A stretch of 64,000 nt of DNA, taken from positions 3,253 through 67,252 of the forward strand of contig JAZQDW010000008.1 of assembly GCA_045546995.1 (NCBI GenBank), given 5' to 3'. Origin of the DNA: Eubacteriales bacterium (GTDB lineage: Bacteria > Bacillota > Clostridia > Oscillospirales > QAKW01). The notes below the pieces were generated by a model. It did no database searches and had not been told where the DNA came from. It was given only the letters and a program-made list of their open reading frames with translations. Of the stretch, positions 43,986 through 62,532 are shown piece after piece. Position 1 is the stretch's first letter. Every line of letters begins with the position of its first letter. Position numbers and translations under genes: made by a program.

Positions 43986-44071
43986 AGTTTTCCCTCCTTG
44001 TTCTTTGTGTATATTATAAATCAACATTTGGTGATTTTCAAGACAAAAAATCTGCCAAAACCGCCCTTTTG

Positions 44072-44100
44072 TTGACAATTGTTATACAAATCAGTATAAT
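44072..44100 (+). promoter_or_regulatory. consensus sigma-A promoter of the LicC-like gene
   Basis: TTGACA, 17-nt spacer, TATAAT. Both hexamers match the consensus exactly. Confidence 0.65.
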
Positions 44101-44142
44101 TATCTCTTGGAAAACCATTATTACGAAAGGATGATTATACAA

Positions 44143-44883
44143 ATGAAAGCAGTTATTTTCAACTCCGGTTTGGGCAACCGTATGGGTGAGTTTACCCAAA
44201 CCCACCACAAATCCATGGCTCGTCTCAAGGATGGAGAGACCATTTTTCACCGTCAGATCCGTCTGCTGAGCGCCGAGGGCATCAAGGAATTTATCATCAC
44301 CACCGGCCCCTTTGAGGACCAACTCAAGGCGGAGGCCGCCGATTTCCCCGAGCTGAGCTTTACCTTTGTCCGCAACGACATTTACGATAAGACCAACTAC
44401 ATCTACTCCATGTTTCTGGCCAGAGAGTATATGAACGACGATCTGGTATTCCTGCACGGCGACCTGGTATTTAACCGCAAGCTGGTCCACGACGTGCTGG
44501 CCTGCGCCGACGCCAACACCGCCACCGTCAACTTCAAAAAGGCTTTGCCCGAAAAGGACTTCAAGGGCAGAGTTAAGGACGGCAAGGTGCTGGAAGTCTC
44601 CATCCACATCTTTGACGAGGATTGCTTTGCCTTCCAGCCCTTCTATAAGATGGAAAAGGCCACTGCCGCCGCCTGGATCGGCAAGGTAGTGGAGTTTATC
44701 CACAAGGGCGAGGACAAATGCTATGCTGAGAATGCCCTCAACGAGATCTTCCCCGCGCTCAACGTGCGCGCCTTCTCTTACGAGAACTATTACATCGACG
44801 AAATCGACAATCTGGACGATTATGCCCGTGTTACCGCCGAGATCCTGTCCTTTGACGAGGCAGACAAGGACATTTTTGCCTGA
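44143..44883 (+). CDS. LicC-like sugar-/alcohol-phosphate nucleotidyltransferase
   Basis: 246 aa from MKAVIFNSGLGNRMGEFTQTHHKSMARL (GxGxRM...K loop). ATG 44131 is an alternative start. The long antisense ORF 44038..44928 is rejected. Confidence 0.75.
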   Translation: MKAVIFNSGLGNRMGEFTQTHHKSMARLKDGETIFHRQIRLLSAEGIKEFIITTGPFEDQLKAEAADFPELSFTFVRNDIYDKTNYIYSMFLAREYMNDDLVFLHGDLVFNRKLVHDVLACADANTATVNFKKALPEKDFKGRVKDGKVLEVSIHIFDEDCFAFQPFYKMEKATAAAWIGKVVEFIHKGEDKCYAENALNEIFPALNVRAFSYENYYIDEIDNLDDYARVTAEILSFDEADKDIFA

Positions 44884-44901
44884 TTCGGCGGCATGATTCC
44901 G

Positions 44902-45177
44902 TAAGCAGTGGAGGAGCCATCCGAACACGCCTGAAAGTGCATAATTTCGGTGCTTTTTGGATTATCGTCGTCGGCAGGCGTCAGCCTTGCCTCCTCCTCT
45001 GCACCAAAAATCTCTTAAAATTCTGCGCTTTCAGGTCGCAGAATTTTGCCGGAGCCGATTTTTGCATCGGCAAGGCATAAAACGCAGCCAATACTTTGTG
45101 TATTGGCGAGTATTTTAACACAGCTGAGGTGAAAATCGGCCCGTCAAAATCAGGTTCGGATACTCCTCCGCTGCTTA
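44902..45177. repeat. 276-bp element bounded by about 25-bp terminal inverted repeats and packed with hairpins (MITE-like or structured RNA)
   Basis: TAAGCAGTGGAGGAGCCATCCGAAC (44902-44926) pairs with GTTCGGATACTCCTCCGCTGCTTA (45154-45177). Internal hairpins include AAAATTCTGCG-ctttcaggt-CGCAGAATTTT, GCCGAT-ttttgc-ATCGGC and GCCAATAC-tttgt-GTATTGGC. Confidence 0.5.
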
Positions 45178-45696: not shown

Positions 45697-45730
45697 AAAA
45701 TCGGACAGCATTCGCTGTCCGATTTTTATT
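45697..45730 (+). terminator. rplS terminator
   Basis: ATCGGACAGC-attc-GCTGTCCGAT followed by TTTTT. Confidence 0.8.
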
Positions 45731-45743
45731 TTATGCTAAAAAT

Positions 45744-45777
45744 CAAAGCGCCTTTTCCGTTTGGAAAAGGCGCTTTG
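45744..45777 (-). terminator. terminator of the sigma/giant-protein operon
   Basis: CAAAGCGCCTTTTCC-gttt-GGAAAAGGCGCTTTG, with a T-run on the minus strand. Confidence 0.75.
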
Positions 45778-45779
45778 AA

Positions 45780-48700
45780 TTATGCGACAGGGGCGGGGGC
45801 CTCAGCGTTGGGAGCCAACGGATCTGCGGGTGGCAGAGCGGCCGGATCAACAATGCTGATTGTAGAACTTGTGGAAACAAAGCGTTTGTCATCACCGTCA
45901 ATAATGATCGGCTCAATGACGAATTTTCCGAGCAACGCTGCCTTGCAGGTGAGTGTAACGGTAGTGTTAGCCTTGCTTTCCGAGATGATTGAAATATCGG
46001 AAAGATCGGGGGATAGCGTATAGTCCCAATGGGTTGCATTGCTCTTAATTGATGCGAGTTTTAGACCGGTAGGCAGATGAATACGCAGTGTTCCGGTTGC
46101 CATCAGTTCGGGCGTGAGGGTGATGCTGATGGTGACGTCGGTGTTGAGGCCGGCTTGTGTAGGAACGCTACAAACGATTGCGCCGCTTTTCAGTCCGTCC
46201 TTGGAAAAATCGGTGGCATTCGACGTGACGTGAGCAGTGCAGAGCGTGCTTTCTGTCTCATCAACAATGCTGAATGCATCATTATCGGCGTTGATTTTTG
46301 CAATTTTATATGCGCATTTTGCATAAGTGATCGATTGTTCTCCTATGTCAAAAATACCGAGTTTTACGGTATTTTTGCCGCTGAGAGCCGGGGTGTATTC
46401 TTTGACAAAGCTAATCTTTTCAATGCCATTGAAGGTATCAGGGGCGTCGTTGATCAGCGCATAGGAAAGAATTTGGTCGGCTTCTTTTGCGGAAATTCTT
46501 GCGGTGAGCAGAGAGAGCAGATTGTTGCAAAGATCAGTGTGATCGGCATTGTCGGGTTTGATCATCAGCTTTTCTTCCTGCGGTATCAGCATGGTTTTGA
46601 TGCGATTGATATAAATATCGTTCGCCTTTTGTTGATTGCCGCTGTATGCATAGGCTAGTGCAAAATAAAGCTGTTGTTCATTTGTCAGCCCATTACCTTC
46701 GGCATAATAGTATGCAAGGTCTTTTTCGACTGCTTCTCCCAGTGCGGCTTTGCCCCACAAAGCGCAGAGGACCTGTTCGTATTCAGAATCCACATTGGTC
46801 AAAATGCTGTCAAAATATCCGGAGGTCTTTACACTGTCAACGGAGGCGGGGAAAAGGGAGGCGATTTGCGCTGTCAGCAGCAAATCCGGCTCTTTTTGGT
46901 CGGTGTAGGCACAATAGCCGCCATTGATCTCATAGGCTTTGAGGATATCGGCAATTTTGGAGGTACCATCCTCCTCGGTTCCGCTGAGTACGGATGCAGC
47001 ATACGCTCTGCCGATGACGTGGTCGATGCGCATTCCGCCGTTGCTGTACAGCTGTGTTAACAGCGCCGCAAAACGTTGGTTTTCTTTATCGGACAAGATG
47101 ATGGTTGATACGTTGCCGTTTGCGCGCTCAAGAAGCGCTGCATTTTCAACCGCTTGCAGGCCTTCTTTGACGGAAAAGTCAAATTCGACCGTTGTTGCTT
47201 TTTTGCCGGTGACGGTGATTTTGCAGGTGTAGTCACCAATGGGGAGTGTGCCCAGGTTCACGGTTTGTAAGCCTGTGCCATGCTGTATAGTCTTGGTTGT
47301 GTGGAGCGCAGTACCGCTGTATACGTTGATTTCTGTTTTGCTATTGTCGCTTAAATTACTTCCGCCTGCTGTGAATGCGATGATACAATCGCTGTCTTTG
47401 GCAAATACATTATCTGTGTGATTTTTGACAAATAAATCAGCCTCGGTTTTGATTTTTGTAATGGCGCAGCCGACCTGAGTGGTCGGGGTGATCACAACTG
47501 CTTGCCCGATCCATTGGTCGTTTTCTTCCGGAACGGTGATCTGAATGACTGCGGTGCCGTTTTTGTCGGTTTTGCCACTGACAAAGCCAACAGATACCAG
47601 CTGATCGTTTACGGCATCCTTGTCGGCCTCGCTCGTTTCAACAGCAACGTTTGCAACCGGGACAGAAATGCTGCTTTGCGTCAAATCGTTCAATACGGCT
47701 GTGCCGGAAAGAACGGCGCTATTGGCGGTTGTTAAGTTGAATGCAAAGGGCGCGTTTTTGACCGGCTTTCCGTCAGGGTCGTTGACCTGCAGGGTCAGTT
47801 TGGCTTTTTCTCCCGGTTGATAGCTTTCTTTTTCTGCAGAAACAGTGGCGGTCAAAAGGCTGGTTTTGTCGGATCTTTCCAGTGTTGTCGGTTCAATGGA
47901 GAAATAGTGCTGTCCGCTGAAATAAACGCCGGAGATGCCGATTTTTGCTCCGAGATCGGTTGTATATGTGAAGGAAGCGTTGTTTTCTTCGGTGACAAAC
48001 GAATTGCTGCCCTTACCATTATTTAAATGATAAATGAAATTGCCATCCTTCAGCGCTTGTTTTGCCGAGGGATCATAAACCTTTAAACTGATCACTTCGT
48101 TATAAGCAGCCTGTGTGGGGCATTCGAATTTAAATGCTTTTGCATCGTGATTTACGGGTTGATCAACGTAACAGGTGTATACGCATTCGCGTCCTGCGGA
48201 ATCCTTTGTGATCAGCTTCAGATATCGATAGCCACTGGCGGTGGGAAGGGAAAGATCGTTAAGTGTTAATTTGCCACCTGCTGTTGTGACGGGGAGCGTT
48301 TTAACAACGGTATCTTTTTCGGTGTAGCTGTATTTCAGCTGAACCTTATTGCTGGTGGTATCGTAATACGTGCCGCTTTGCTTGCGTTCGAAGGAAACGT
48401 CGTGAACTTCAATGGTGACGTCTTTTGTCGTAGGTTCACCGGCGTAGTCGGCTGTTGAGAGATCTGTACAAGTCTTTTTAAAAGCCGCATCAGACAGCGC
48501 GTTCAGCTTTTGCAGATCGATTTTTCCGGTTTGAATATCCAGGGTGCAACCGATGGGTGTTTTTTTGCTGACGGTTCCGTAAATGTATTCGTCAGTGTTG
48601 AAAACAAGAATCGGAGATGTGACATTGTTTTCCTCTACACCGTAGATAAACTCCGTTGTAAATAATGTGGGAGCACATTTGGAAAGCGGATCGGTTGCAA

Positions 48701-50627
48701 TGCCTGCACCGTAATTTGCAGCAAAGGTAGTGCCGGCTGTCCCGGTTTTATCGGTAGTTACCGCTACATCTGTGTTATACTTGCCGCTGAGGTTTGCGGC
48801 GGGAAGGCCATTGTTGTAGAAAACCTTTGCCGTGGCGGTGACGTTTTCGCCATGGAGATATGCGTTTTTATTTGTATTCAGCAAAACGGTGTGTGCACGG
48901 TCATCCTCGGAAGTAACAGTGACGTTTTTGCTGGATACAACGGTACCGTTGATGTTTAAGTTGATGGTCAGTGCGCCGGGCTTGATGTTTTCAAGCGGGA
49001 TTTCAGCTGTGTATGCGCCGCCGGTAATATTTACTTCCATAGTTTCGATATCGCGGCTGAAAACGAGAGAGGCCACAGGTTCGTCTGCATCACTATAACG
49101 TTTGCTGATTGTTCCCCAAACAGTGATGGTGTCGTCAACGTTGTAACGTGTGCTGTCGCTGTACAGGAAGGCGTTGAACATATTTTGCGGGCCGGCAGAC
49201 GAAGCGGGTGTTTCGCAACAAAGGATGTACGGGAGCAAGTTGTTGGCATTGATCGTTGCATAGGCGTAACGTTCGTCGCTCTCGGTTTTGATCGTGGCCA
49301 GACCCAAATCATTTGTTTGCGCACCGGTATTGCCTATTTTGATTTTTGCGCCGGAAACAGGCTGTTCGGTTTGCGTGCTGTTGATCCAGAACGTATGCGT
49401 ATCATTGTTGAAAGAACAGTAAACCGCCAAGTCGTGTGACTGAAGCAATTGATAGCACTTCAGTTCATTCCACAGGATTTCTGCGACGTAATAGCCGGTT
49501 TCCAGTTCCTTGGGATAATTAAGATAGTAGGTGTCTTTTATCAGTGGGTCGGGGATGGCCGAGACGGAGAATTGTGCATATACCGTACTGTCTCCACGCT
49601 TGACATCGGTAATGATGGCGGAGGACAAAACGGTGTCGTGGCCATATTTCTTGTGCAATTCAAGATAGGTGTCGGAGTCGGGTAATTTGTGCAGCGTTAC
49701 GTCGGCAGTTGTCGTAGTGGTTCCTTTTGCGCCGATGGTTACGCTGGGGGCTTGTGTTGTTGAAAACGTATTTGCAATGTCAAAGGCGTTCTTTTTGACG
49801 TAAATATACCGATCGCTGTCTCCTGCGCCGGTAGTGAAACTGAAGGTGGTGGATTTGCCTAAAGCATGTTCCTCGTTACCATAAATGGAGCCATCGATTG
49901 TGACGGTATACGTGGTGTAGGGGAGCAGTGCTTCTTTGGGCGTAAATGTCCAGATGCGGCCTTTGTGGGTAAAGGTTCCTTCGACTTCGGGATAAATACT
50001 GAAATATTCCTGGAAGGCGTTGACACCGCTTTCTGTGAAGGTTACGTTGATTGCGGCTTTACGGTCAATATCGTCAGCGTGGTTTTGAGGAAAATATGAA
50101 TCAATGGCAAATGCTGTTTCGGTTTGTAACGACCAACGGAAGGTGGTGGCGTTGTCAACAAGAGAGTTGACGGTGTAACCGGCATTTTTTTGCAAGGGCT
50201 CGTCAAAGCTGAGGGTGAATCGGTTCGTGCCTTTTTTCTTGATGGAGTATGAAACCTCGGGAAACAGGGAAATGTGTTCCTCCAACTGTTTGGCGCTCAT
50301 GCTTTCTTTTGTGATTACGGTAAGGGTCGTATTGCACGCGACGCCTTGCTGTCCTTGCATATCGGCGGATACATATGTGATGGGACTAAGAATTGCTGTA
50401 TCACCGGATAAATTGTTCGAATTATCAAATCTAAAATAATTGTAGGTGTACCATCCCAATCCGGTTAAAATCAGCAAGGAAATGGCGACAAAGGAGATCC
50501 ATTTTGTAAGCAACCCGTTTTTCCTGTTTCTGGCAGTATCTGCCTGTTGCACAATTTCGCTCAGCGTAGTTGCGGGATCCGGTTTGATTTGGGTATTGAG
50601 CGCAGATAAAAGTTCTCGTAATAACAT
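45780..50627 (-). CDS. 1615-aa single-pass membrane protein: short cytoplasmic N-tail, TM, very large Ig-like/beta-sandwich ectodomain with an alpha-helical repeat region (alpha-2-macroglobulin-like architecture; candidate anti-sigma/sensor)
   Basis: The N-terminal 42 aa are cytoplasmic and the TM helix is WISFVAISLLILTGLGWYTY (nt about 50439-50501). Many beta-rich repeats of about 90-110 aa follow. A helical region (about nt 46450-47100) contains LTQLYSNGGMRIDHV..., INGGYCAY... and LYFALAYAYSGNQQKA. No CxEQ thioester motif occurs after any Cys. The start lies 1 nt after the sigma-factor stop, with AGGAGAA upstream. Confidence 0.8.
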   Translation of the reverse strand: MLLRELLSALNTQIKPDPATTLSEIVQQADTARNRKNGLLTKWISFVAISLLILTGLGWYTYNYFRFDNSNNLSGDTAILSPITYVSADMQGQQGVACNTTLTVITKESMSAKQLEEHISLFPEVSYSIKKKGTNRFTLSFDEPLQKNAGYTVNSLVDNATTFRWSLQTETAFAIDSYFPQNHADDIDRKAAINVTFTESGVNAFQEYFSIYPEVEGTFTHKGRIWTFTPKEALLPYTTYTVTIDGSIYGNEEHALGKSTTFSFTTGAGDSDRYIYVKKNAFDIANTFSTTQAPSVTIGAKGTTTTTADVTLHKLPDSDTYLELHKKYGHDTVLSSAIITDVKRGDSTVYAQFSVSAIPDPLIKDTYYLNYPKELETGYYVAEILWNELKCYQLLQSHDLAVYCSFNNDTHTFWINSTQTEQPVSGAKIKIGNTGAQTNDLGLATIKTESDERYAYATINANNLLPYILCCETPASSAGPQNMFNAFLYSDSTRYNVDDTITVWGTISKRYSDADEPVASLVFSRDIETMEVNITGGAYTAEIPLENIKPGALTINLNINGTVVSSKNVTVTSEDDRAHTVLLNTNKNAYLHGENVTATAKVFYNNGLPAANLSGKYNTDVAVTTDKTGTAGTTFAANYGAGIATDPLSKCAPTLFTTEFIYGVEENNVTSPILVFNTDEYIYGTVSKKTPIGCTLDIQTGKIDLQKLNALSDAAFKKTCTDLSTADYAGEPTTKDVTIEVHDVSFERKQSGTYYDTTSNKVQLKYSYTEKDTVVKTLPVTTAGGKLTLNDLSLPTASGYRYLKLITKDSAGRECVYTCYVDQPVNHDAKAFKFECPTQAAYNEVISLKVYDPSAKQALKDGNFIYHLNNGKGSNSFVTEENNASFTYTTDLGAKIGISGVYFSGQHYFSIEPTTLERSDKTSLLTATVSAEKESYQPGEKAKLTLQVNDPDGKPVKNAPFAFNLTTANSAVLSGTAVLNDLTQSSISVPVANVAVETSEADKDAVNDQLVSVGFVSGKTDKNGTAVIQITVPEENDQWIGQAVVITPTTQVGCAITKIKTEADLFVKNHTDNVFAKDSDCIIAFTAGGSNLSDNSKTEINVYSGTALHTTKTIQHGTGLQTVNLGTLPIGDYTCKITVTGKKATTVEFDFSVKEGLQAVENAALLERANGNVSTIILSDKENQRFAALLTQLYSNGGMRIDHVIGRAYAASVLSGTEEDGTSKIADILKAYEINGGYCAYTDQKEPDLLLTAQIASLFPASVDSVKTSGYFDSILTNVDSEYEQVLCALWGKAALGEAVEKDLAYYYAEGNGLTNEQQLYFALAYAYSGNQQKANDIYINRIKTMLIPQEEKLMIKPDNADHTDLCNNLLSLLTARISAKEADQILSYALINDAPDTFNGIEKISFVKEYTPALSGKNTVKLGIFDIGEQSITYAKCAYKIAKINADNDAFSIVDETESTLCTAHVTSNATDFSKDGLKSGAIVCSVPTQAGLNTDVTISITLTPELMATGTLRIHLPTGLKLASIKSNATHWDYTLSPDLSDISIISESKANTTVTLTCKAALLGKFVIEPIIIDGDDKRFVSTSSTISIVDPAALPPADPLAPNAEAPAPVA

Positions 50628-50628
50628 A

Positions 50629-51177
50629 TCAGTTCTCCTGTACTTGTCCTTTGGTCAATTCGGTACGAATGGCCTTTGTTAAGAAATAAACGTAATTGCC
50701 GGCATCGTCGACCTCAATGCCAAGTTCGGCGGCGATTTTATCAAATCCGAAGCCAAACAGATAGTGCAGATAAAAAGCTCGGCGATATTCCAACGGATAG
50801 GTGGCGACAAAATTGAGAATATTCTGTAATTTGCCCTGTAATTCAGTCTTACTTAAAACAGGGGGGATCTCTGCGTCGAGCTCCTTTTCCAATAAGGATT
50901 TATATCTTTTGTATTTTTTGCCGCTATCGACCGGAGTTTCCTCCAAAGATGCAGTGTAAACGTTGATGTTTTTTTGAATAATGCGATATAATTGCGTACG
51001 CTCGTTTTTTTGCTGCTCGTTGGAATCGAAGCCTTTGTACAACTCTGCGAAACTGTTTTTGAGAATTTCTGCAGTGGCGCTCATGTCAGCGGTTTTTGCC
51101 AGCGTGTAGCCATAGGCCTCCTGATAGGTCTTTTTGAAAAATTCTTCAAATAAAATTCGAATTTGCTTCCGTTTCAT
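50629..51177 (-). CDS. ECF-like sigma-70 family factor
   Basis: 182 aa. Region 2-like FEEFFKKTYQEAYGYTLAKTADMSATAEILKNSFAELYK and region 4 HTH LEYRRAFYLHYLFGFGFDKIAAELGIEVDDAGNYVYFLTKAIRTEL. Confidence 0.75.
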   Translation of the reverse strand: MKRKQIRILFEEFFKKTYQEAYGYTLAKTADMSATAEILKNSFAELYKGFDSNEQQKNERTQLYRIIQKNINVYTASLEETPVDSGKKYKRYKSLLEKELDAEIPPVLSKTELQGKLQNILNFVATYPLEYRRAFYLHYLFGFGFDKIAAELGIEVDDAGNYVYFLTKAIRTELTKGQVQEN

Positions 51178-51261
51178 TCAGGTCCCTGCTTTCATAAATT
51201 AAAATGTAATAATTCATTTTAACATAATTTATTGTTTAATGCAAGAATTGAGTTTGGTTTG

Positions 51262-52772: not shown

Positions 52773-52797
52773 TCTGTCGTTTGTGCATAATAAACAA

Positions 52798-52834
52798 AAA
52801 CACGCCGCAAGAAATTTTGCAGGCGTCTTTTTTG
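52798..52834 (+). terminator. pncB terminator
   Basis: ACGCCGCAA-gaaatt-TTGCaGGCGT followed by a T-run. Confidence 0.7.
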
Positions 52835-53095
52835 TGCAATATTCACAAAAATTGAGACGAAAAGCAATTTTCTCTACCGTAAAAAAACGTGAAAAATGGC
52901 AAAAAAAATTAAAAAAATCGTATATTTTTATTAATAAATTGTTGAATTTGTTTATATAATATGTTAAACTAATTAATATTAAGATGTATTATTTTGTTCT
53001 ATCGTCGTGATTTTATTCAACCTGCAAATCTAAAGTCCGGTGAACCGGCAAAATAACCATCTAGTTTTGTAATCAAAATGTTTGGAGGTAACGCA

Positions 53096-56000
53096 ATGTC
53101 AAACAGAAGTGCAATCAAAAAAATGTTTCGGTCTTCTGTCTGTCTGATGATGGTGTTGATTATGTGCCTGTCGATGGCCGTAGTCGCATTTGCAGACGGG
53201 GAAACGACCGGAGCCGATGACTCCTATCTTGCCGGTCAGCAATCTGCTGATTCCGCCGAGACGGAGAGTTATCTTACCGGTTTTGTCAGAGAAAATCTGT
53301 ATAACGATTACTATGACAAATACCTGCAGTACGATATGATACTTCCCACCGTTGAGGTGGATGGCCCTGCTTTTGCTGCTGCTACCGCAAAAGTTAAAAG
53401 TGAGGCTGTTTTTGAGGAAGCTACTACCGTTGCTGTAATTGAAAAAGAGGGTGTGATTGATTATACGATCAATGTTCCCACGACCGGTATGTATGCTTTG
53501 AAGATGAATTATTTTCCCATCGAGGATCTCAACGGCAACGATATCGAGATTGCTGTCAAGATCGATGGCAAAACTCCTTTTGAGGAAGCGGCAGCGCTGA
53601 ACCTGAAGAGAGTCTGGATCAACGAGTTGGTCGACGGCAAGATTTCTACCGACAGTATCGGTAATGAATTGCTGCCCAATCAGATTCAGAGTTCTCGTTG
53701 GGTTTCCAAAGATCTGTTTGATGCAGAAGGCAGATATTTGGATTCTTTCAAATTCTATCTCACTGCCGGTGAGCATAAACTGAGCCTGATTGTTGAAAAC
53801 GGTTTGTTTGCTCTTGACTCTATGGTTCTTCATAATGAAGGTGCCATGATTTCTTACGATGAGTATCTTAACAATGCTGTTTACAGTGGCGCTCAAGATA
53901 CTGCTGTTCAGTTGGAGCCCGTTGAAGCTGAACAATTCGTTGACAAGAGTGACTCCATTATTCAGATGGCATTTGACCGCAGTGATGCTTTGGTTAGACC
54001 TTACAGCATCAGCACGACCAAATATAATACTTTGGGTGGTACCAACTGGCAGAAGAGCGGTAACCGCGTCAACTGGACAATTGATGTTCCTGAAGATGGT
54101 TTGTATGAACTGTCTTTCCGTTACAGACAGTCTTATCAACGTGGTATGGCTTCTTACCGTACCCTTTATATTGATGATGTCGTGCCCTTTGCTGAGGCTC
54201 GTTGCATCGCATTTGATTACAAAACCGGTTTCCAGTATATGGTTGCAGGCCGTGAGCTGGAAGATGGTACAAAAGAGAACTATAAGTTCTATTTAACTGC
54301 CGGTAAACACACGCTTTCTTTGGAGGCAAGTATTGGTGAAATGTCCAATACTTATCGCGAAGTTGAGAGCATTATCTACCAATTAAATTATATATACAGA
54401 AAAATCGTTCTGATCACCGGTATTACTCCTGATAATAATCGTGACTATCAGCTGTTTACCAGAATCGCCGATTTGGAATCGATGATGACCTCTGCTATCG
54501 AATCCATGAGAACCACAAAGCAGAACGTTGACGCTTTGAATGATGGTAACGGTGGCGGTGATGCTGAGATTTTGAACACGCTGGTTGTTCAGATGGAAGA
54601 CTTCGTTAAGAAGCCCTATTCCATTCCCAGCCGCTTGGACACCTTTAAGGATAACATCAGTACTCTGGGTAACTGGCTGCTGGACATTCGTGATCAGCCT
54701 CTCTGTATTGACAGATTCTTCCTGGCCGGATCGCAAGCCGGTCTGAAACCTCAGAAGAGCAACTTCATTCAGGGTGTTTCTCACGAAATCAGAGGATTTA
54801 TTTCTTCCTTCGTTGATGACTATACTGCTGTTGGTGGCTCCGCCGATGAGGATGAGCGCGCTATCAGCGTTTGGGTTGGTACCGGTCGTGACCAGGCAAT
54901 TGCACTGAAAACATTGACGGACAACTATTTTACTCCCGAAACCAATATCGGTGTTAACATCTCTCTGGTTCCTCTGGGCATTTTGTCCAAGGCGATCATT
55001 GCAGGTAAGGGCCCCAACGTTGCACTTCACGTTTCCAGAACCGAGCCGATCAACCTTGGTATCCGCGGTGCCTTGGTCGATATTCAAGATATGGAAGGTT
55101 ACGAGGACGTACAGGCACGCTTCTCTAAGTATGCGATGGCGCCTTACACCTTTACTTCCACGCTGGAGGATGGCACTCAGTACAGCAAGACCTTTGGTCT
55201 GCCCGAGACTCAGAACTTCGAAATGATGTTCTATCGTACAGATATTTTTGCTGAACTTGGCATTAAGGTTCCCAACACTTGGGATGAATTTGATGCAATT
55301 CTGCCCGTAATTCAGTCCAACAACATGACCGTTGGTTTGAATCAAAACACCGGTGGCGGTATGTTCTTTACTTTGATTCAGCAGAACGACGGCTTGATCT
55401 ACACTCCCGACGGTTCCAAAACCTGCTTTACTGAGCAGTATGCAGTTGACGCCTTTACTAAATGGACCGACTATTACAGAATGTACGATTTTCCGTTGAC
55501 CTACAGTTTCTATGCTCGCTTTAGAAGCGGTGAAATGCCTCTGGCATTCCAGCCCTATTCTCAGGCCACCTTTATTGAGGAGTCTGCACCTGAATTGCGT
55601 GGCTTATGGGCAATGGCACCCGTTCCCGGCACTTTGGATGAGAACGGCAAGCTGAACCGTACGGAAGAATCCTCCGGTTTGACCGCCAGTATCATTATTA
55701 AGAGCATTGCTAAGAGTGAAGCTAAGAGACAGCAAGAGGAAGCAGATTCCTGGACCTTTATTAAATGGTGGACTTCTGCTGACATTGCTGCACAGTATGG
55801 TAAGCGTGTAGAAATGGCTATCGGCCCTGTTGCCCGTTATACCACCGCCAATCTGGAAGCCTTTGATATGATCGGCTGGGATCACGATCACGCCGTCAGC
55901 ATTAAAGAGCAGAGAGCCAGTGTTAAGGAAATTCCCGAAGTAATTGGTGGTTATTACGTATCCCGTATGGTAACCAACGCATTCCGTGCAGTTACCAACG

Positions 56001-56113
56001 ACTACAGCAACCAGCGCGAGATGCTGTTCTATTATGACGATCAAATTAACAATGAGATTTGGAGAAAACGTCAAGAGTACAATTTCTCCATTCCGGAGGA
56101 GGCTGATATTTAA
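53096..56113 (+). CDS. giant ABC-transporter solute-binding protein with two tandem CBM-like beta-sandwich domains
   Basis: 1005 aa from MSNRSAIKK (GGAGG 7 nt upstream). It has an N-terminal signal/anchor. The internal duplication pairs IDYTINVPTTGMYALKMNYFP...FKFYLTAGEHKLSL with VNWTIDVPEDGLYELSFRYRQ...YKFYLTAGKHTLSL. The C-terminal about 430 aa resemble a family-1 sugar-binding protein (ISVWVGTGRDQAIALKTL...). Confidence 0.8.
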   Translation: MSNRSAIKKMFRSSVCLMMVLIMCLSMAVVAFADGETTGADDSYLAGQQSADSAETESYLTGFVRENLYNDYYDKYLQYDMILPTVEVDGPAFAAATAKVKSEAVFEEATTVAVIEKEGVIDYTINVPTTGMYALKMNYFPIEDLNGNDIEIAVKIDGKTPFEEAAALNLKRVWINELVDGKISTDSIGNELLPNQIQSSRWVSKDLFDAEGRYLDSFKFYLTAGEHKLSLIVENGLFALDSMVLHNEGAMISYDEYLNNAVYSGAQDTAVQLEPVEAEQFVDKSDSIIQMAFDRSDALVRPYSISTTKYNTLGGTNWQKSGNRVNWTIDVPEDGLYELSFRYRQSYQRGMASYRTLYIDDVVPFAEARCIAFDYKTGFQYMVAGRELEDGTKENYKFYLTAGKHTLSLEASIGEMSNTYREVESIIYQLNYIYRKIVLITGITPDNNRDYQLFTRIADLESMMTSAIESMRTTKQNVDALNDGNGGGDAEILNTLVVQMEDFVKKPYSIPSRLDTFKDNISTLGNWLLDIRDQPLCIDRFFLAGSQAGLKPQKSNFIQGVSHEIRGFISSFVDDYTAVGGSADEDERAISVWVGTGRDQAIALKTLTDNYFTPETNIGVNISLVPLGILSKAIIAGKGPNVALHVSRTEPINLGIRGALVDIQDMEGYEDVQARFSKYAMAPYTFTSTLEDGTQYSKTFGLPETQNFEMMFYRTDIFAELGIKVPNTWDEFDAILPVIQSNNMTVGLNQNTGGGMFFTLIQQNDGLIYTPDGSKTCFTEQYAVDAFTKWTDYYRMYDFPLTYSFYARFRSGEMPLAFQPYSQATFIEESAPELRGLWAMAPVPGTLDENGKLNRTEESSGLTASIIIKSIAKSEAKRQQEEADSWTFIKWWTSADIAAQYGKRVEMAIGPVARYTTANLEAFDMIGWDHDHAVSIKEQRASVKEIPEVIGGYYVSRMVTNAFRAVTNDYSNQREMLFYYDDQINNEIWRKRQEYNFSIPEEADI

Positions 56114-57081
56114 TGGCAGCGGCTTTGAATAAAAAAGAAAAAGAACTTGAACTGCTTAAAAAGAAAAAATTATCCTTCTCTGAGAAGATGTCCCTTACGT
56201 GGCGTCAGATGAAGGAAGGCTATTGGAACTATATTCTGATGGCTCCGTTTTTGATCTTCTTTGCATTGTTCACTATTATTCCCGTTGTTTCTTGCTTTGT
56301 CTTGTCTTTTACCAGATATGACATCATCAATGCACCGATGTTCATCGGCTGGGATAACTATTTGAGAATGTTCCTCGAAGATGATGTTTTCCTGATCGCA
56401 TTGAGAAACACCATCGAGTTTGCAATCATTACCGGCCCGGTTGGTTACATTCTCTGCTTTGTGTTTGCGTGGTTTATCAACGATTTGCCGCCGTTTGGCC
56501 GTGCATTCTTCACCGTTTTGTTCTACGCACCTACACTTGCAAACATTTACTTTATCTTCCAGTACATCTTTTCCGGCGATATGTACGGTTTGCTGAACTC
56601 TACGCTGATTCAGCTCAACGTTATTTCTGAACCGATTCAGTGGCTACAAGATACAGACTATATGCTTACGATTTGTATCATCGTTCAGTTGTGGTGTAGC
56701 TTGGGTACCGGCTTCCTTGCGTTGGTCGCCGGCTTGCAGAGCTTGGATCCCGCATTGAACGAGGCCGGTGCAATCGACGGTGTCAGAAACAGATTCCAGG
56801 AATTGATTTACATCATTCTTCCGCAGATGGGTCCCTCGTTGATGTTTAGTGCTGTTATGCAGATCTCCAGCGCATTTGCAGTTGGTAGTATTTCTTCGGC
56901 ACTGGTTGGTTTCCCGTCTGTCGACTATGCAGCTCATACCATTGTGTTGCACGTTTCCGACTTTGCACATACTCGTTTCGAAATGGGTTACGCCGCAGCC
57001 TTGTCGGTCATCCTCTTCTTGATGATGCTTGGCTTTAAGGCAATTGTTAATCTCTTGCTTAAGAGATATTCTGATGATTAA
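56113..57081 (+). CDS. sugar ABC transporter permease (MalF/LplB-like), pair 1
   Basis: 322 aa with 6 TM helices and an EAA-loop-like region (LNEAGAIDGVRNRFQELIYIILPQM). Its start overlaps the SBP stop. Confidence 0.85.
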   Translation: MAAALNKKEKELELLKKKKLSFSEKMSLTWRQMKEGYWNYILMAPFLIFFALFTIIPVVSCFVLSFTRYDIINAPMFIGWDNYLRMFLEDDVFLIALRNTIEFAIITGPVGYILCFVFAWFINDLPPFGRAFFTVLFYAPTLANIYFIFQYIFSGDMYGLLNSTLIQLNVISEPIQWLQDTDYMLTICIIVQLWCSLGTGFLALVAGLQSLDPALNEAGAIDGVRNRFQELIYIILPQMGPSLMFSAVMQISSAFAVGSISSALVGFPSVDYAAHTIVLHVSDFAHTRFEMGYAAALSVILFLMMLGFKAIVNLLLKRYSDD

Positions 57082-57099
57082 GGAGGTGGAAAAAGAACT

Positions 57100-57954
57100 A
57101 TGTCAAAACTTAGAAGAAATAAAATCGCCATTATGGGCGATATCACAACTTATTTGTTGTTGTTGGTTTACGGTTTGCTGATGTCTCTGCCGTTGATTTA
57201 TGCGGTTTTGCAGGCGTTTAAACCTTACAACGAATTGTTCATTTTCCCGCCTCGGTTTTTTGTTAAAAACCCCACGATTTCAAACTTTACACAGTTGTTT
57301 GATCTCACGTCTTCTTCCTGGGTTCCGTTTTCCAGATACGTATTTAACTCTGTGTTGAATACGATTGTTGGTACGGTTATTCACATTCTTGCCGCCGCAA
57401 TGTGCGCCTATCCTTTGGCAAAGAACCAATTCCCCGGTAAGAAAATCATTTTCCAGATCGTAGTTTGGGCTTTGTTGTTCCACTCCGCTGTTCTTGAAGT
57501 TCCTACCTATTTGGTGATGGCTTACCTCGGCATCATTGATACTTATTTTGCATATTGGTTGCCCGAAATCGGTGCCACGATGGGTGTGTTCCTTTTGAAA
57601 CAGAATATGGATTCAATTCCCACTGCTATGATTGAGGCTTGTAAAATTGATGGTGCCAGTGAATGGACAATTCTTTGGAACATCATTATGCCTTGCGTCA
57701 AACCCGCTTGGCTGACTCTTGCCATCTTTGCATTCCAACGTAACTGGAACGCAACATCTTCTTCCTATATATATACTGAAACGCTGAAAACCCTGCCCGC
57801 TGCTTTGAGCCAGATCACAGCCGTTGGTAGTGTCAGCCGTGCCGGTGAAGCGTATGCGGCTTCTGTCATTATGATGATTCCTGCAATTATATTCTTCATC
57901 TTTGCACAAGGTAATACGGTTAAGACGATGTCGCATGCCGGTATTAAGGGTTAA
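57100..57954 (+). CDS. carbohydrate ABC transporter permease (MalG/LplC-like), pair 1
   Basis: 284 aa with the EAA loop MIEACKIDGASEWTILWNIIMP. Confidence 0.85.
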   Translation: MSKLRRNKIAIMGDITTYLLLLVYGLLMSLPLIYAVLQAFKPYNELFIFPPRFFVKNPTISNFTQLFDLTSSSWVPFSRYVFNSVLNTIVGTVIHILAAAMCAYPLAKNQFPGKKIIFQIVVWALLFHSAVLEVPTYLVMAYLGIIDTYFAYWLPEIGATMGVFLLKQNMDSIPTAMIEACKIDGASEWTILWNIIMPCVKPAWLTLAIFAFQRNWNATSSSYIYTETLKTLPAALSQITAVGSVSRAGEAYAASVIMMIPAIIFFIFAQGNTVKTMSHAGIKG

Positions 57955-57969
57955 GGAGGGGAGTTACAT

Positions 57970-59520
57970 ATGAATAGAAAATTTAAAAAGCTGAGTGTAC
58001 TCCTGATCTCCGTTATTCTTGTAAGTATGCTGATCACAACCGGTGCATTTGCTTATATTCCTTACACCGGTTACAACTTTGACTTTTATGGCGAAATCGT
58101 AAACGGTCCTTCTGGCTATGTTCCCGAAAAGATCATTTATGGTTCTGACGTCGGCCTGGAGTCTTTTGTTAATCCCTTGGATATGTATATTACCAAGGAT
58201 AACCGAATTCTTGTGGTTGACAGTGGTGGTGCAGGCGCTACCTCTCGTGTTATCATTATGGATTCCAACTTCAAACTGATTAAAATCATTGATAAGTTTA
58301 TCGGTTTGAACGGGGAACCGCTGAACGTTATCAATGCAAACGGTCTTTGCGTTGACAAGGAAGGTTTTATTTATCTTTGCGACCCCGACAGCTTCCGTGT
58401 TTTGAAGTTTGACACAAACGGTCAGGTGCATTTGATTTACGGTGCTCCTCCTAAAGAGTTTGTTGACGACGCTTTCGTTTATCGTCCTCAAAAGCTGGGT
58501 ATTGGTATCAATGGTTCGATCTTTGTTATCTCCAAGGGTTGTACCGACGGTATTATGGAGTTTGATACCAAGGGGTCGTTTGTAAGATTCTTTGGCGCTC
58601 CTGAGGTTGAACTTTCTGTTACCGACTATTTGAATATTTATTGGAGAAACATCTACCGTGTTATCGGTGGCGATAGCGTAGACGCTTACTTTGCCACCTA
58701 TGTTCCCAGTGAATTCGCCAATATGTCCGTTGATGATAATGGTTTCGTTTACACAATGATTGCTGCAAACGAAAAATCCACGGACGAGATGTATAAACTG
58801 AACTTCCAGGGTACCAATATTTTGGATCCTGCACAGAAGAGTACCAGTAAAAAGACCGCCGCTTTGTCTGCAAACTACGGTGACTTGATCACTCGTTCAA
58901 CCTCCGGCGCGGGTAACGTATTTAACGACGTTTGTCTTGATTCGGATGGTTTCTTCACTTTACTTGATACCAATCTTGGTCGTGTTTTTGAGTACGACAA
59001 GGAAGGTAACCTGATTTTTGTTTACGGTAATAAGGGTAATCAGATCAATCAGGTTCAGAATGGTCTGCTTGTCAGCCCATCTGCAATCATCAAATTAGGG
59101 GATAAGACTGTTGTATTGGATGCCGGTACCGGCTCGATCACTGTTTTCAAACTGTCTGATTTCGGTGAACAGTTGCATGAAGCTGTCAGCCTGTATAACG
59201 AAGGTAAATACGATTTGGCTGAAGAGCCCTGGAGAAACGTACTGAAATACGATGCCAATTCCGAACTTGCACATATCGGTCTTGGTAAGGTACATTATTT
59301 GCGTGGTAATTATGCGGAAGCATTGGATGAGTTTAAACTTGGCAATGACCGCAACAATTATTCCAGAACTTACAAATTGTATCGTGACGATGTAATCAGA
59401 AGTAACTTCACCTGGGTTGTTACCATTATCGTTGTTTTGTTGATCCTGCTGATCGTCTGGAAAAAATATGGTAAGCAGATCAAGGCTCGTCTTAAAGCAA
59501 AAAAGGGAGGTGATCAATAA
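57970..59520 (+). CDS. extracytoplasmic NHL-repeat beta-propeller + TPR protein with N-terminal signal/TM and C-terminal TM anchor
   Basis: 516 aa. NHL-like blades (ITKDNRILVVDSGG..., GLCVDKEGFIYLCDPDSFRVLKFD..., ...FVISKGCTDGIMEFD...), a TPR-like segment (LGKVHYLRGNYAEALDEFKLG) and a C-terminal helix WVVTIIVVLLILLIVW followed by a basic tail. Confidence 0.7.
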   Translation: MNRKFKKLSVLLISVILVSMLITTGAFAYIPYTGYNFDFYGEIVNGPSGYVPEKIIYGSDVGLESFVNPLDMYITKDNRILVVDSGGAGATSRVIIMDSNFKLIKIIDKFIGLNGEPLNVINANGLCVDKEGFIYLCDPDSFRVLKFDTNGQVHLIYGAPPKEFVDDAFVYRPQKLGIGINGSIFVISKGCTDGIMEFDTKGSFVRFFGAPEVELSVTDYLNIYWRNIYRVIGGDSVDAYFATYVPSEFANMSVDDNGFVYTMIAANEKSTDEMYKLNFQGTNILDPAQKSTSKKTAALSANYGDLITRSTSGAGNVFNDVCLDSDGFFTLLDTNLGRVFEYDKEGNLIFVYGNKGNQINQVQNGLLVSPSAIIKLGDKTVVLDAGTGSITVFKLSDFGEQLHEAVSLYNEGKYDLAEEPWRNVLKYDANSELAHIGLGKVHYLRGNYAEALDEFKLGNDRNNYSRTYKLYRDDVIRSNFTWVVTIIVVLLILLIVWKKYGKQIKARLKAKKGGDQ

Positions 59521-60191
59521 TGAAATTTTTTAGTGCAATTAAAGATTTTTGCGTACGTCTTTACGAACGTGAAAAGGTTAAGAAAAATCCGTTATTGATC
59601 CTGACTCATCCCATTGACACGGTTGAGGAAATGAAAGAAAAGCGTAATGGTTCTGTGTTTTGGGCCACCGTTCTTCTGTTCCTCTTCACCTTGTCCGAAA
59701 TTATTGTAACCGTTGCAAAAGGCTTTTTGTTTAATTCTGCTAAGGCTGAAGATTTCAATCTGTTCTATGTTTTGATGCGTTCTTGCTTCCTTGTACTGTT
59801 GTACGTTGTTGGAAACTGGGCACTGTGTACCTTGCTGGAAGGCGAGGGTAGAATGGTAGACATCTACGTTTACACCTGTTACTGCCTGACGCCTCTCACG
59901 ATATATAGAATTTTTGATACGATTTTTTCCAATGTGGTTACAACGGATGAATACGTTTTCATCAACATGGTCAATGCGTGTGCTTGGATATGGTTCATTG
60001 CTATGCTGACCTTCTCGATGAAGCGATTGCATAACTACACAATGGGTAAAACGATTCTGTGTATGCTGTTTTCTGTGGTAGCAATGGCAATTATTTTCTT
60101 CTTGATTTATTTGTTTGTTATCTTGATTCAGCAGTTGGCAGTATTTGTAATGACGATCTATACTGAGATTGTCATGAGAACCATAGCATAG
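59520..60191 (+). CDS. Yip1-family polytopic membrane protein
   Basis: 223 aa with an N-terminal soluble segment of about 40 aa, then 5 hydrophobic helices. Size and topology are typical of bacterial Yip1-domain proteins. Its start overlaps the upstream stop (TAATG). Confidence 0.6.
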   Translation: MKFFSAIKDFCVRLYEREKVKKNPLLILTHPIDTVEEMKEKRNGSVFWATVLLFLFTLSEIIVTVAKGFLFNSAKAEDFNLFYVLMRSCFLVLLYVVGNWALCTLLEGEGRMVDIYVYTCYCLTPLTIYRIFDTIFSNVVTTDEYVFINMVNACAWIWFIAMLTFSMKRLHNYTMGKTILCMLFSVVAMAIIFFLIYLFVILIQQLAVFVMTIYTEIVMRTIA

Positions 60192-60207
60192 GAAGGAGGA
60201 GTATAAA

Positions 60208-62532
60208 ATGAAAAAATTTAACAGACTTTTATCTTTGCTCCTGGCACTTCTTATGTGCGTTTCAATGTTCTCTATGTTTGCTTTTGCAGCAGATGAGGAG
60301 GAGGCTGAAGGTGATGGCCCTGCCACCACTGAAACCGAATCCGAAGGCGGCGAAGGGGAATCCGGCGGTATCAAGCAGAAGGTAGATCCTTCCAGATTCC
60401 AGTCTTCCAGTACGCAAGCCATCCCTGCTTCCTATACCAAGGTTTCTGAAAACAAAAATCTGGCACTGTATCTCGATTATTTGAGCGGCGAATATGCTCT
60501 GCTTGATAAGAGAAATAACACCTCTTTGTTTTCTAACCCCCAGGATCGTAAGCAGGACAATGTAGCGAACAGTGAGACTGAGCGTATTGCTTCTTCTCAT
60601 TTAGGCGTTTCGTTTATTACCTCTTCTTTTAAAACCATCGAAGTTACTTCTCTCGATGCTAAAATCATTACCGAAAAGTTTGGCGATAGTCAGATTGTTT
60701 CTTACTTCTTTGATTCCGATTCTTCTTTCTTTATCATTCCTGTTATGTTCACGCTGAAGGATGATTATCTGGAAGTCGAATTGCTGATCGATTGTATCAA
60801 CGAAATGTCTGATTCTCGTGTTTTGACCGTAAGTCTGATGCAGGTTTTTGCTGCCGGTAACCCGAAAGATCAGGGCTATCTGCTGTTGCCTGACGGTATG
60901 GGCTCGTTGATGAAGTTTAATCAAAACCTGTCCAATATTGACGTTTATAACGGTTGGATCTATGGTGAGGATCCCACTGCAAAGGCGGCAATTAACGAAT
61001 ACAACTACGGCCGTGATCTGACTGAGGGTGTTCGCTTGCCTATATATGGTGTCAAGAAAAATGACAATGGTTTTCTTGCTATCATTACTGAATGCGAATC
61101 CAACGTTATGCTGAAGGCGTACAATTCCGGTATGCTGAACAGTTATAACTTTGTTTATCCCACCGTTACGATTCGTAATTCTCAGACCCGTCGTACCTCC
61201 ACCGGTAATACCGGTGCCGGTGTTTACTATTCCGACGAGTTGCCTGAAAATTTGAAGATCCGCATTTACCCGTTGGTTGGCAATGACGCTAATTACGTGG
61301 GCATGGCCAAAAAGTATCGTCAGTATTTGATCAATGACCTGGGTATGGCTCCTTTGAGTGAGGATGCCGGCGTTCCTATGAACGTTACGATGATCGGCGC
61401 CTACAAGAGAACCAAGCATTTTCTTGGTTTCCCTTATACCGGTGTTGATACGATGACCACCTTTGATCAGGCCGGTGAAATTTTGACTGATCTGGATGAT
61501 AAGGGTGTAGATAACATGATCTGCGGTATGCTTGGCTGGAATAGCGGCGGTTTGGAAAGTGCTGTTAGCACGACCTTTAACCCCGAAAAGAAGCTGGGCG
61601 GCAAAAAAGCGGCAAATGCTTTGCTCGAAACCGCAGATAGCATCGACGTTCCGTTGATGTTTGACGTGGATTTGGTTCATTACTATACCGCTTCCGGTAA
61701 GTATAAGAAATTTAATTCTACTGTTTATGGTTTGGACTTGGCTCCTACAGCAATGTTCCCCTTTATCATTTCTGTAAACCGTGTTGATAAGAACCGTGAA
61801 CCTCACTATTTGTTCCATCCGACCGCAATGCTGAGCGTTGCCAGTGAATTTGTTGATGCCGCTTCCGGCGTTGGTATTGAAAACTTCTCGTTTGAGAGCG
61901 TTGGCTCCGAACCCTATCCTGCGTACAATACAGAAGATGTTTCCACCCGTGATCAGACCGTTGCTGACTTTACTCAGGTCTTCACCAATACCGCAGAAAA
62001 GACTGACGGTATTGTTTCTACCGGTAACGGTAACGCTTACGTGTTCCCTTCGGCAAACAATGTTACGGATGCTCCTTTGTACAGCAGCCATATGTATTTT
62101 GCCGAAACCGAGGTTCCGTTCTATCACATTGCATTGCGTGGTTTGACTCGCATTTCCGGTCCCGCTCTTAACTTAAGTGCCGAGAAGGAAGATTTGATTC
62201 TTCGATCTGCTCAGGTCGGTGCCGGTCTGTACGCTGTTTTGTCGTATGAGTCTTCCAGCAACCTGAAGGATACGTCTTATAACTATTATTATTCAACTCA
62301 GTACTCTCTGCTTGGCGAAGAGATCGTCGATGCTTATAAGAGACTTGATGTTGTATATGATGCTGTTGGTACAGCTGCCATTACCGATTATCAAATCGTT
62401 TCCGAAACGTTGAAGGTTACCACCTTTGATAACGGCGTGAAGGTAATTGTTAACTATGGTGAAAAGGACGCAACTCATAACGGTGTTAAGATTGCGGCCA
62501 ACGATTTTGTTGTAGTAGGAGGTGACAAATAA
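60208..62532 (+). CDS. secreted 774-aa protein of unknown function (DUF5696-like by recollection of the family and its gene context)
   Basis: Signal peptide, then an acidic low-complexity linker (ADEEEAEGDGPATTETESEGGEGESGG), then a large mixed alpha/beta region. I recognised no catalytic motif. The DUF5696 assignment comes from memory of the family, not a search. Confidence 0.55.
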   Translation: MKKFNRLLSLLLALLMCVSMFSMFAFAADEEEAEGDGPATTETESEGGEGESGGIKQKVDPSRFQSSSTQAIPASYTKVSENKNLALYLDYLSGEYALLDKRNNTSLFSNPQDRKQDNVANSETERIASSHLGVSFITSSFKTIEVTSLDAKIITEKFGDSQIVSYFFDSDSSFFIIPVMFTLKDDYLEVELLIDCINEMSDSRVLTVSLMQVFAAGNPKDQGYLLLPDGMGSLMKFNQNLSNIDVYNGWIYGEDPTAKAAINEYNYGRDLTEGVRLPIYGVKKNDNGFLAIITECESNVMLKAYNSGMLNSYNFVYPTVTIRNSQTRRTSTGNTGAGVYYSDELPENLKIRIYPLVGNDANYVGMAKKYRQYLINDLGMAPLSEDAGVPMNVTMIGAYKRTKHFLGFPYTGVDTMTTFDQAGEILTDLDDKGVDNMICGMLGWNSGGLESAVSTTFNPEKKLGGKKAANALLETADSIDVPLMFDVDLVHYYTASGKYKKFNSTVYGLDLAPTAMFPFIISVNRVDKNREPHYLFHPTAMLSVASEFVDAASGVGIENFSFESVGSEPYPAYNTEDVSTRDQTVADFTQVFTNTAEKTDGIVSTGNGNAYVFPSANNVTDAPLYSSHMYFAETEVPFYHIALRGLTRISGPALNLSAEKEDLILRSAQVGAGLYAVLSYESSSNLKDTSYNYYYSTQYSLLGEEIVDAYKRLDVVYDAVGTAAITDYQIVSETLKVTTFDNGVKVIVNYGEKDATHNGVKIAANDFVVVGGDK

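Follow-up and report, generated by a model that had tools for sequence, protein, structure and literature searches.

Can an alpha-2-macroglobulin (A2M) act as the sensor of an anti-sigma factor? The question is raised by a 64,000-nucleotide stretch of contig JAZQDW010000008.1 (Eubacteriales bacterium, assembly GCA_045546995.1, positions 3,253 to 67,252), hereafter called the window, in which a short gene for a protein resembling extracytoplasmic function (ECF) sigma factors is followed at once by an open reading frame (ORF) for a giant surface protein of 1615 amino acids. The overall best explanation, to which we give a probability of roughly 0.6, is a bicistronic sigma/anti-sigma module of the ECF type, made up of these two genes, with a thioester-less A2M as its sensor. 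The features of the operon are as follows.

50629-51177, minus strand: gene for a divergent ECF-like sigma factor of 182 aa with sigma2 and sigma4 regions only (ORF call)
45780-50627, minus strand: the giant ORF, a 1615-aa single-pass membrane protein and putative anti-sigma factor with a thioester-less A2M ectodomain
50633-50639, minus strand: AGGAGAA, ribosome-binding site of the giant ORF, within the 3' end of the sigma gene
51216-51244, minus strand: sigma-A-type operon promoter, read from the sequence (-35 TTGCAT at 51244-51239, 17-nt spacer, extended -10 TGTTAAAAT at 51224-51216)
45743-45778, minus strand: intrinsic terminator with a 16-bp stem and T-run, directly 3' of the giant ORF stop

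The sigma gene and the giant ORF are a two-gene operon with a conserved housekeeping-type promoter. Both hexamers and the TG of this promoter were unchanged in an alignment of seven related loci, where, as in the window, the operon consists of the sigma and A2M genes only and is flanked by pncB and rplS; it contains no other anti-sigma candidate. At the junction, the minus strand reads AGGAGAA (50639-50633), C, TGA (50631-50629), T (50628) and ATG (50627-50625), with the Shine-Dalgarno sequence 5 nt 5' of the giant's start codon. The one-nucleotide gap and internal AGGAGAA on which the original prediction based its claim of coupling are thus present, and the arrangement is in keeping with translational coupling, by which both proteins would be made in matched amounts. 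That both ORFs are real genes follows from 13 full-length homologues of the giant (33–49% identity) and from the same pair in the seven related loci. The downstream gene, rplS, is convergent with the giant ORF and has its own terminator, and the 149-bp spacer between the sigma gene and the divergent pncB holds two conserved back-to-back sigma-A-type promoters, that of pncB being a perfect TTGACA-16-TATAAT.

The pairing was followed through a genome scan and contig look-ups, which gave 30 related A2M loci from Bacillota and metagenomes in three classes. Class i comprises the window and seven other loci (uncultured Eubacteriales metagenome-assembled genomes (MAGs) in those records that name an organism; one locus from a Hadza gut sample), and 8/8 have the sigma-giant pair. 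Their gene order is SBP-pncB <> sigma-giant <- rplS (SBP, solute-binding protein), the sigma and giant genes being spaced by -4 to +14 nt, and their giants share the N-terminal tail MKLKDxLxxLKxxIxPxP and the transmembrane (TM) helix. Class ii (8 loci; ~22% identity) was found in Gracilibacter, Peptococcaceae, Desulfitobacteriia and GC-rich metagenome lineages. Its A2Ms have an N-terminal cytoplasmic extension of 75–115 aa with a strongly conserved motif (ELxELEKxM..F..L..APLRAEF..ELR..L), and its sigma factors are canonical ECFs with Sigma70_r2 and Sigma70_r4_2 above threshold, encoded by genes that overlap the A2M start by 8–14 nt in seven loci and lie three genes upstream in the eighth. Class iii A2Ms have a signal peptide, a lipobox or a short anchor, and a sigma ORF was found in 0/14 informative loci, among them that of Desulfitobacterium sp. 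PCE1, whose A2M shares 60% identity with a sigma-linked one.

A sigma gene is therefore present in 16/16 tail-bearing loci versus 0/14 tail-less loci, and the sigma-less relatives are anchored by a plain signal peptide or lipobox. The suggestion that homologues of the giant are systematically preceded by such a sigma gene has held up in a sharpened form: close homologues are always paired, and the wider family is paired exactly when the tail is present. In a neighbour-joining tree, class ii is nested among class iii, apart from class i, which argues that the tail-sigma association is not one inherited accident, and the independent events behind it are few (perhaps 2–4). Overall, we consider it fairly probable that the 182-aa protein and the giant are a sigma/anti-sigma pair in which the giant would bind the sigma factor.

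The 182-aa protein is predicted to be a strongly diverged ECF-type sigma factor of a very small family, and its original description as ECF-like is upheld, for a divergent member, by profile comparisons and transitive relatives. In Pfam scans, it scored 25.1 bits against Sigma70_r4_2 (cut-off 25.7; E 1.4e-5) and had no match to Sigma70_r2. Full-length alignments were obtained with TIGR02985 (E 1e-9, far below the cut-off), with TIGR02937 (E 1.6e-5; 24.6 vs. 42.9 bits), with the SigY model (weak, E 5.2e-6, also far below the cut-off) and with the SigM model. An eight-sequence profile of the sigma family was aligned by hhalign with canonical ECFs (90% probability, E 1.5e-6, columns 7–161) and, weakly over the whole length, with M. 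tuberculosis SigL (E 0.026). The class i and class ii sigma factors are related, since a hidden Markov model (HMM) of canonical ECFs (A3) recovers a class i sigma (7e-11) and, conversely, the HMM built from class i (A2) recovers the canonical sigma of locus L026 (1.8e-9). When 1.84 billion representatives were searched exhaustively with HMMER, only 146 relatives came up, five clusters of them at E<=1e-30; among the 66 best, Sigma70_r4_2 occurs in 61/66 and Sigma70_r2 in 23/66. The family is about as small as that of the giant, which fits a dedicated pair, and is conserved at 58% mean column identity. Its AlphaFold2 (AF2) model is all-helical, with eight helices, and the best Foldseek matches were all ECF sigma factors (E of at least 1.6e-3; nearest SigL, SigH, sigmaE, AlgU and SigW). 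The modelled helix-turn-helix of region 4 (moderate confidence) superposes on region 4 of sigma-E, SigC and SigD at 1.2–1.5 A. At 182 aa with sigma2 and sigma4 only, the protein also has the size and domain content of ECF group 4 (about 170–200 aa).

The giant protein is divided as follows.

50502-50627, minus strand: cytoplasmic tail, residues 1–42, a putative sigma-binding peptide (consensus given above)
50439-50501, minus strand: TM helix WISFVAISLLILTGLGWYTYN, residues ~43–63, from hydropathy and the basic residues N-terminal of the helix
49830-50120, minus strand: Big_5 Ig-like domain, residues 170–266 (Pfam E 1.3e-12, above the cut-off), inside the most conserved N-terminal block, 61–400
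47598-47672, minus strand: bait-region-like loop, residues ~986–1010, hypervariable, with a predicted local distance difference test score (pLDDT) of 21–32
46398-47087, minus strand: alpha/alpha toroid of 12 modelled helices, residues ~1181–1410, resembling a thioester domain (TED) without the thioester

A hydropathy scan detected one strong hydrophobic segment (residues ~43–63), the next-best window being far weaker, and the basic stretch RNRKNGLLTK just before it points, by the positive-inside rule, to an N-in protein with a 42-aa cytoplasmic tail. Hydropathy and basic flank thus agree with the single-pass topology first proposed. Residues 1–20 of the tail are conserved in 14 family members. 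The tail contains no His and no Cys, and therefore no HxxxCxxC motif; zf-HC2 and RskA were absent from it in Pfam even at E<=10, and no RsgI_N or SigI domain was matched in Pfam scans of the tail, the whole giant or the sigma factor. This confirms the lack of zinc-finger and RsgI-N signatures already noted, and the identities of a zinc-binding anti-sigma factor (ZAS) and of a SigI/RsgI system were both rejected on these grounds. The class I anti-sigma domain (ASD; ~80 aa, four helices, with HxxxCxxC in the ZAS) likewise differs from the 42-aa tail. Known anti-sigma domains compared with the tails gave non-significant matches only (DUF5345, E 0.0075 for the window tail; Sigma_reg_N, E 0.02; DUF3379, DUF4179 and NF052375), which were probably driven in part by the TM helix. 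A sortase-anchored adhesin was also rejected, because reading through the C-terminus, without a motif scan, revealed no LPXTG.

With regard to the ~1550-residue ectodomain, the model indicates a true fold of the A2M/thioester-containing protein (TEP) superfamily that is thioester-less. Pfam placed Big_5 above its cut-off, and A2M (20.5 vs. 21 bits), MG2 (19.2 vs. 32.8), A2M_BRD (17.4 vs. 22.7) and bMG3 came in slightly under theirs. The 13 full-length homologues carry A2M/MG2/A2M_BRD-type domains in precomputed Pfam annotation, and a class ii relative (L004) scores 55 bits for MG2, 41 for A2M and 39 for A2M_BRD. A profile of the giant family matched E. coli YfhM/ECAM in collinear segments (E 2.4e-7), and also human and Salmonella A2M. 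The AF2 model of residues 416–1615 (mean pLDDT 82; predicted template modelling score 0.62) consists of beta-sandwich domains in series, a disordered loop at 986–1010, a 12-helix toroid at ~1181–1410 and C-terminal beta domains. Foldseek aligned it best with ECAM (E 2.5e-37) and Salmonella A2M (1.3e-36), at ~10% sequence identity, and then with TEP1, CD109, C5 and A2ML1 (about 1e-28 for TEP1, CD109 and C5). Model, Foldseek and profile agree on the domain order of the superfamily (an array of macroglobulin (MG) domains, bait domain, helical TED, C-terminal MG domains). The beta-sandwich array and helical block, and the A2M likeness read from them, are therefore recovered by independent means; an ordinary adhesin lacking A2M-like domains, named beforehand as one outcome that would sink the idea, is not what the model gives.

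Two parts of this ectodomain bear on its working. The loop at 986–1010 is indel-rich across the family and aligns with the ECAM segment between the A2M_BRD and A2M domains, and on the model it would be a bait-like region and putative cleavage site. The best-conserved regions of class i are the N-terminal block 61–400 and residues 1281–1340 of the TED-like toroid, the latter being the most conserved stretch of the whole giant, and not the bait loop. No CxEQ thioester motif was found in the giant, as the first reading had reported, nor in 37 relatives; an identity as a thioester A2M was rejected accordingly, and a GGY(A/C)xY near the start of the TED-like domain presumably marks where CxEQ would lie. 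Thus the giant lacks the CxEQ that marks type I A2Ms (ECAM/YfhM) and shares the missing thioester of type II (MagD/YfaS). It does not share the six-gene mag/yfa operon with MagA, MagB and MagF, its partner being the sigma gene only.

The class i ectodomains are also rich in Cys (10–25, with 21 in the window protein, none of them invariant), an unusual trait among the extracellular proteins of anaerobes. Most class ii and class iii A2Ms have 0–3 Cys and none has more than eight.

If the two proteins work as a sigma/anti-sigma module, the giant would insert N-in, as its hydropathy and basic flank suggest, its 42-residue cytoplasmic peptide would hold the sigma factor at the membrane and its ~1550-residue ectodomain would be the sensor. 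The most likely trigger, judging from known A2M behaviour, would be foreign proteases attacking the exposed bait-like loop. An A2M-type conformational change or destabilisation might then expose the membrane-proximal part to site-1 and site-2 (RasP-type) proteolysis, after which the tail would be degraded and the freed sigma factor could redirect RNA polymerase to its regulon. A2Ms are built for cutting at the bait loop followed by a conformational change, which makes a protease trigger attractive. Nonetheless, by this analogy a protease as the activating signal is a tentative proposal that we would not bet on. More doubtful still is the complete chain, in which the A2M is a signalling receptor whose bait loop is cut by a protease and whose conformational change leads through intramembrane proteolysis to release of a dedicated sigma factor. 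Such a receptor would have arisen or been retained in at least two A2M clades, as sigma-A2M in the window and its class and as sigma-A2M-Memo in lineages such as Desulfitobacteriia and Peptococcaceae.

Several observations weigh against a sigma/anti-sigma module, or against parts of it, and our arguments need to be read with them in mind. The sigma protein misses every curated Pfam and NCBIfam cut-off, so that its homology is supported by profiles and transitive relatives, and its AF2 model is poor (pLDDT 48, from a two-sequence alignment); for both reasons its sigma activity is no more than predicted. The tail is short, and its matches to anti-sigma domain families all fall below significance. 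Because class i synteny was passed on vertically, its eight loci amount to one evolutionary observation, and hhalign detected no homology between the tails of class i and class ii (E 0.09–0.9), so that the helix-P-x-P-helix pattern seen in both was set aside as mere resemblance. Promoter evidence is likewise unfavourable. An ECF-type autoregulatory promoter (AAC-type -35, CGT-type -10), which the original prediction had suggested looking for upstream of 51177, was not found there: all conserved blocks are sigma-A-like and are explained by the operon and pncB promoters, and it is apparently sigma-A, and not its own sigma factor, that drives the class i operon. In class ii, the sigma gene is preceded by an ECF promoter, CGTAAC-N16/17-TCGTTAATAC (L004 6984-7008, L009 4444-4468, L014 6948-6972), which implies that the class ii sigma would be autoregulated. 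The corresponding motif GTAAC-N15-18-CGTT does not exceed chance frequency in the window, and no target promoter of the window sigma was found.

The protease step is the weakest part of the proposal. Between the bait-like loop and the membrane lie ~920 residues, so that a cut in the loop would not by itself yield a site-2 substrate; the loop is ~25 residues shorter in three family members, the A2M motif that follows it (RxDFxDTxxF) has decayed in the window protein, and the conserved regions lie elsewhere. A non-protease ligand therefore stays a serious, if improbable, alternative. On that account the module is the same and the ectodomain senses a glycan, a cell-wall fragment, a polymer or a partner protein through its conserved N-terminal domains or TED-like toroid, with no bait cleavage and the A2M scaffold reused as a binding platform. 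The conservation of 61–400 and 1281–1340 over the bait loop speaks for this, as do the shortened loop and decayed motif just described, the absent thioester and a conserved neighbour operon that encodes a 1011-aa SBP with a weak CBM35, ATP-binding cassette (ABC) permeases and DUF5696. However, no ligand-binding family was detected in the giant, the full A2M domain order is kept including a disordered loop at the bait position, and the neighbour synteny is probably shared ancestry. Moreover, MagD traps protease although it has no thioester (PMC5764988).

Two further accounts dispense with the signalling role altogether. The giant could be a membrane-anchored protective protease trap or surface shield, its N-terminus being only a signal anchor and the sigma factor being controlled otherwise or constitutive. 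Bacterial A2Ms are indeed known as membrane-anchored protease inhibitors (PMC5764988, PMC3735191), and both the failure of the tail to match an anti-sigma domain and the sigma-A type of the operon promoter would suit such a protein. We regard it as unlikely, for it leaves unexplained the 16/16 versus 0/14 co-occurrence of tail and sigma, the conservation of tail residues 1–20 and the 8–14 nt gene overlaps of class ii, and sigma-less relatives anchor themselves by signal peptide or lipobox alone. Alternatively, the sigma-like protein might be a pseudo-sigma, a cytoplasmic adaptor or chaperone of the giant that has lost sigma activity. Pfam's failure to see region 2, curated scores that are all below cut-off, the missing ECF promoter and the poor structure model would all be expected of such a protein. 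It nevertheless aligns collinearly with ECF sigma factors over its full length, its modelled region 4 superposes well on known sigmas, its family is strongly conserved and most of its nearest relatives are recognisable sigma factors, which makes this the least probable of the readings considered here, and a very improbable one. The sigma/anti-sigma module with an A2M sensor hence remains our preferred explanation of the locus.

Some observations concern the surroundings of the operon. An adjacent operon (53078-63665), probably a glycan-uptake system, encodes the 1011-aa SBP (SBP_bac_8 and weak CBM35), two ABC permeases, an NHL/TPR protein, a Yip1 membrane protein, DUF5696 and another permease, and at least its first gene adjoins pncB in six class i loci (L001, L002, L020–L023). 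Between pncB and the SBP gene (52773-53077; core 52939-52970), a ~60-nt block containing TTGAAT-17-TGTTAAACT is invariant in seven genomes whose proteins are only 35–50% identical. Its 32-nt core has a single occurrence in the window and resembles a sigma-A promoter of the extended -10 type; the SBP operon was considered as a target of the sigma factor and rejected, as nothing ties its promoter region to the sigma. The pncB terminator is flanked by conserved palindromes, TTGTRCAAAATA and TTTTTGTGCA..CACAAAA. On the other side, back-to-back intrinsic terminators lie between rplS (plus strand) and the giant ORF (minus strand) at 45697-45778, and a sub-threshold Rfam match to NrrF over them (28.8 vs. 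60 bits) is most likely a chance hit on hairpins. Beyond rplS, the related loci continue with a 204-aa ORF, a YfbR-like HD protein, DUF4364 and gyrB, and the window with a 296-aa ORF without a Pfam match and an HTH+IspD fusion. The G+C content changes near 44000-45000, from ~52–59% (1–44 kb) to ~41–48% (44–64 kb). The G+C shift and the differing genes past rplS could reflect a rearrangement, an island or a mis-join in the MAG.

Others concern the annotation and neighbours of the wider A2M family. In Gracilibacter (P0021, L004 7599-7829), the NCBI start removes 76 conserved codons of the ORF, and the gene call of P0038 starts after the TM helix; with such truncated starts, the conserved tail of class ii A2Ms is lost and their anti-sigma-like architecture is hidden. 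Public names for these proteins are limited to "alpha-2-macroglobulin" or "Ig-like domain-containing protein". In 14 class ii/iii loci, with or without a sigma gene, the A2M gene is followed at once, and often overlapped, by a Memo-family gene (PF01875) (L004 12710-13597, L009 10253-11197, L014 12766-13905 and L026 8684-9586; also L024, L025, L028–L030, L005, L006, L008, L017 and L019); this Memo gene is absent from the window and every class i locus. Eight distant relatives of ~1780–1910 aa (P0018, P0086, P0087, P0108, P0109, P0112, P0119 and P0128) have the A2M array fused to PF07591, PF14623 and PF05203 in precomputed Pfam annotation; P0018, from Candidatus Peregrinibacteria, bears the NCBI name "polymorphic toxin-type HINT domain-containing protein".

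Bacterial A2Ms are seen as passive protease traps of Gram-negative periplasms, and the known ECF anti-sigma factors use many kinds of sensor domain. Full-text literature searches returned no paper that joins anti-sigma factors or ECF sigma factors with A2Ms, and the text of the 2021 ECF re-classification does not mention A2M sensor domains; within the literature searched, an anti-sigma factor with an A2M sensor has not been described. If the reading is true, ECF signalling would gain a new class of input (protease attack or another A2M-bound ligand), bacterial A2Ms would acquire a signalling role and the N-terminal extensions of some Bacillota A2Ms would be explained. The pair would provide Bacillota, here gut Clostridia, with a direct transcriptional sensor of protease attack, and could matter for colonisation by these organisms, which live amid host proteases. 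It would also offer a simple two-gene system for studying how an A2M conformational change is read across a membrane.

Among known systems, the single-pass anti-sigma factors controlled by regulated intramembrane proteolysis (RseA/sigmaE, RsiW/sigmaW and RsiV/sigmaV) share with the window module the sigma-then-anti-sigma gene order and coupled translation, as well as an N-in single-pass protein with a cytoplasmic sigma-binding peptide (putative here) and an extracytoplasmic sensor. They differ in that the giant's tail is limited to 42 aa and has neither an ASD nor a zinc motif, its A2M ectodomain of ~1550 aa is far larger than their sensors and class i has no autoregulatory ECF promoter. The SigI/RsgI systems of Clostridia combine a sigma factor with a single-pass anti-sigma factor whose N-terminal cytoplasmic domain is short and whose polysaccharide-sensing exterior is large and modular. 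The window pair is similar as a Clostridia sigma factor whose single-pass partner has a large modular extracellular part, but its sigma is a 182-aa ECF-like protein and neither RsgI_N nor SigI was matched in Pfam. SigY/YxlC (ECF31) and class II peptides such as CnrY (PDB 4cxf) are comparable as small anti-sigma elements encoded at +1. The window sigma weakly matches the SigY model (E 5.2e-6) and the tail weakly matches DUF5345 (E 0.0075), which we take to be the YxlC family; however, all scores are far below their cut-offs and no YxlD-like gene follows the giant. YxlC, encoded at +1, is the anti-sigma factor of SigY (PMC7826278).

As for the ectodomain, the type I A2Ms ECAM/YfhM and Salmonella A2M (PDB 5a42, 4ziq, 4rtd, 4u48) are its best structure and profile matches, collinear with it along its entire length and similar in the flexible loop at the bait position and the TED-like toroid, yet the giant has no thioester, is not a lipoprotein and is only ~10% identical to them. 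Type II bacterial A2Ms are defined by the missing thioester (PMC5764988), and P. aeruginosa MagD and E. coli YfaS resemble the giant in A2M/TEP order, absence of CxEQ and membrane association (PMC5764988, PMC3735191). Unlike these, the giant occurs in a monoderm host of the Bacillota, has a TM helix and cytoplasmic tail in place of a periplasmic location, and is accompanied by a sigma factor instead of the mag operon partners. By analogy, then, the sigma-giant module would resemble the RsiW, RsiV, RseA and RsgI type in its working while standing outside the domain definitions of all four.

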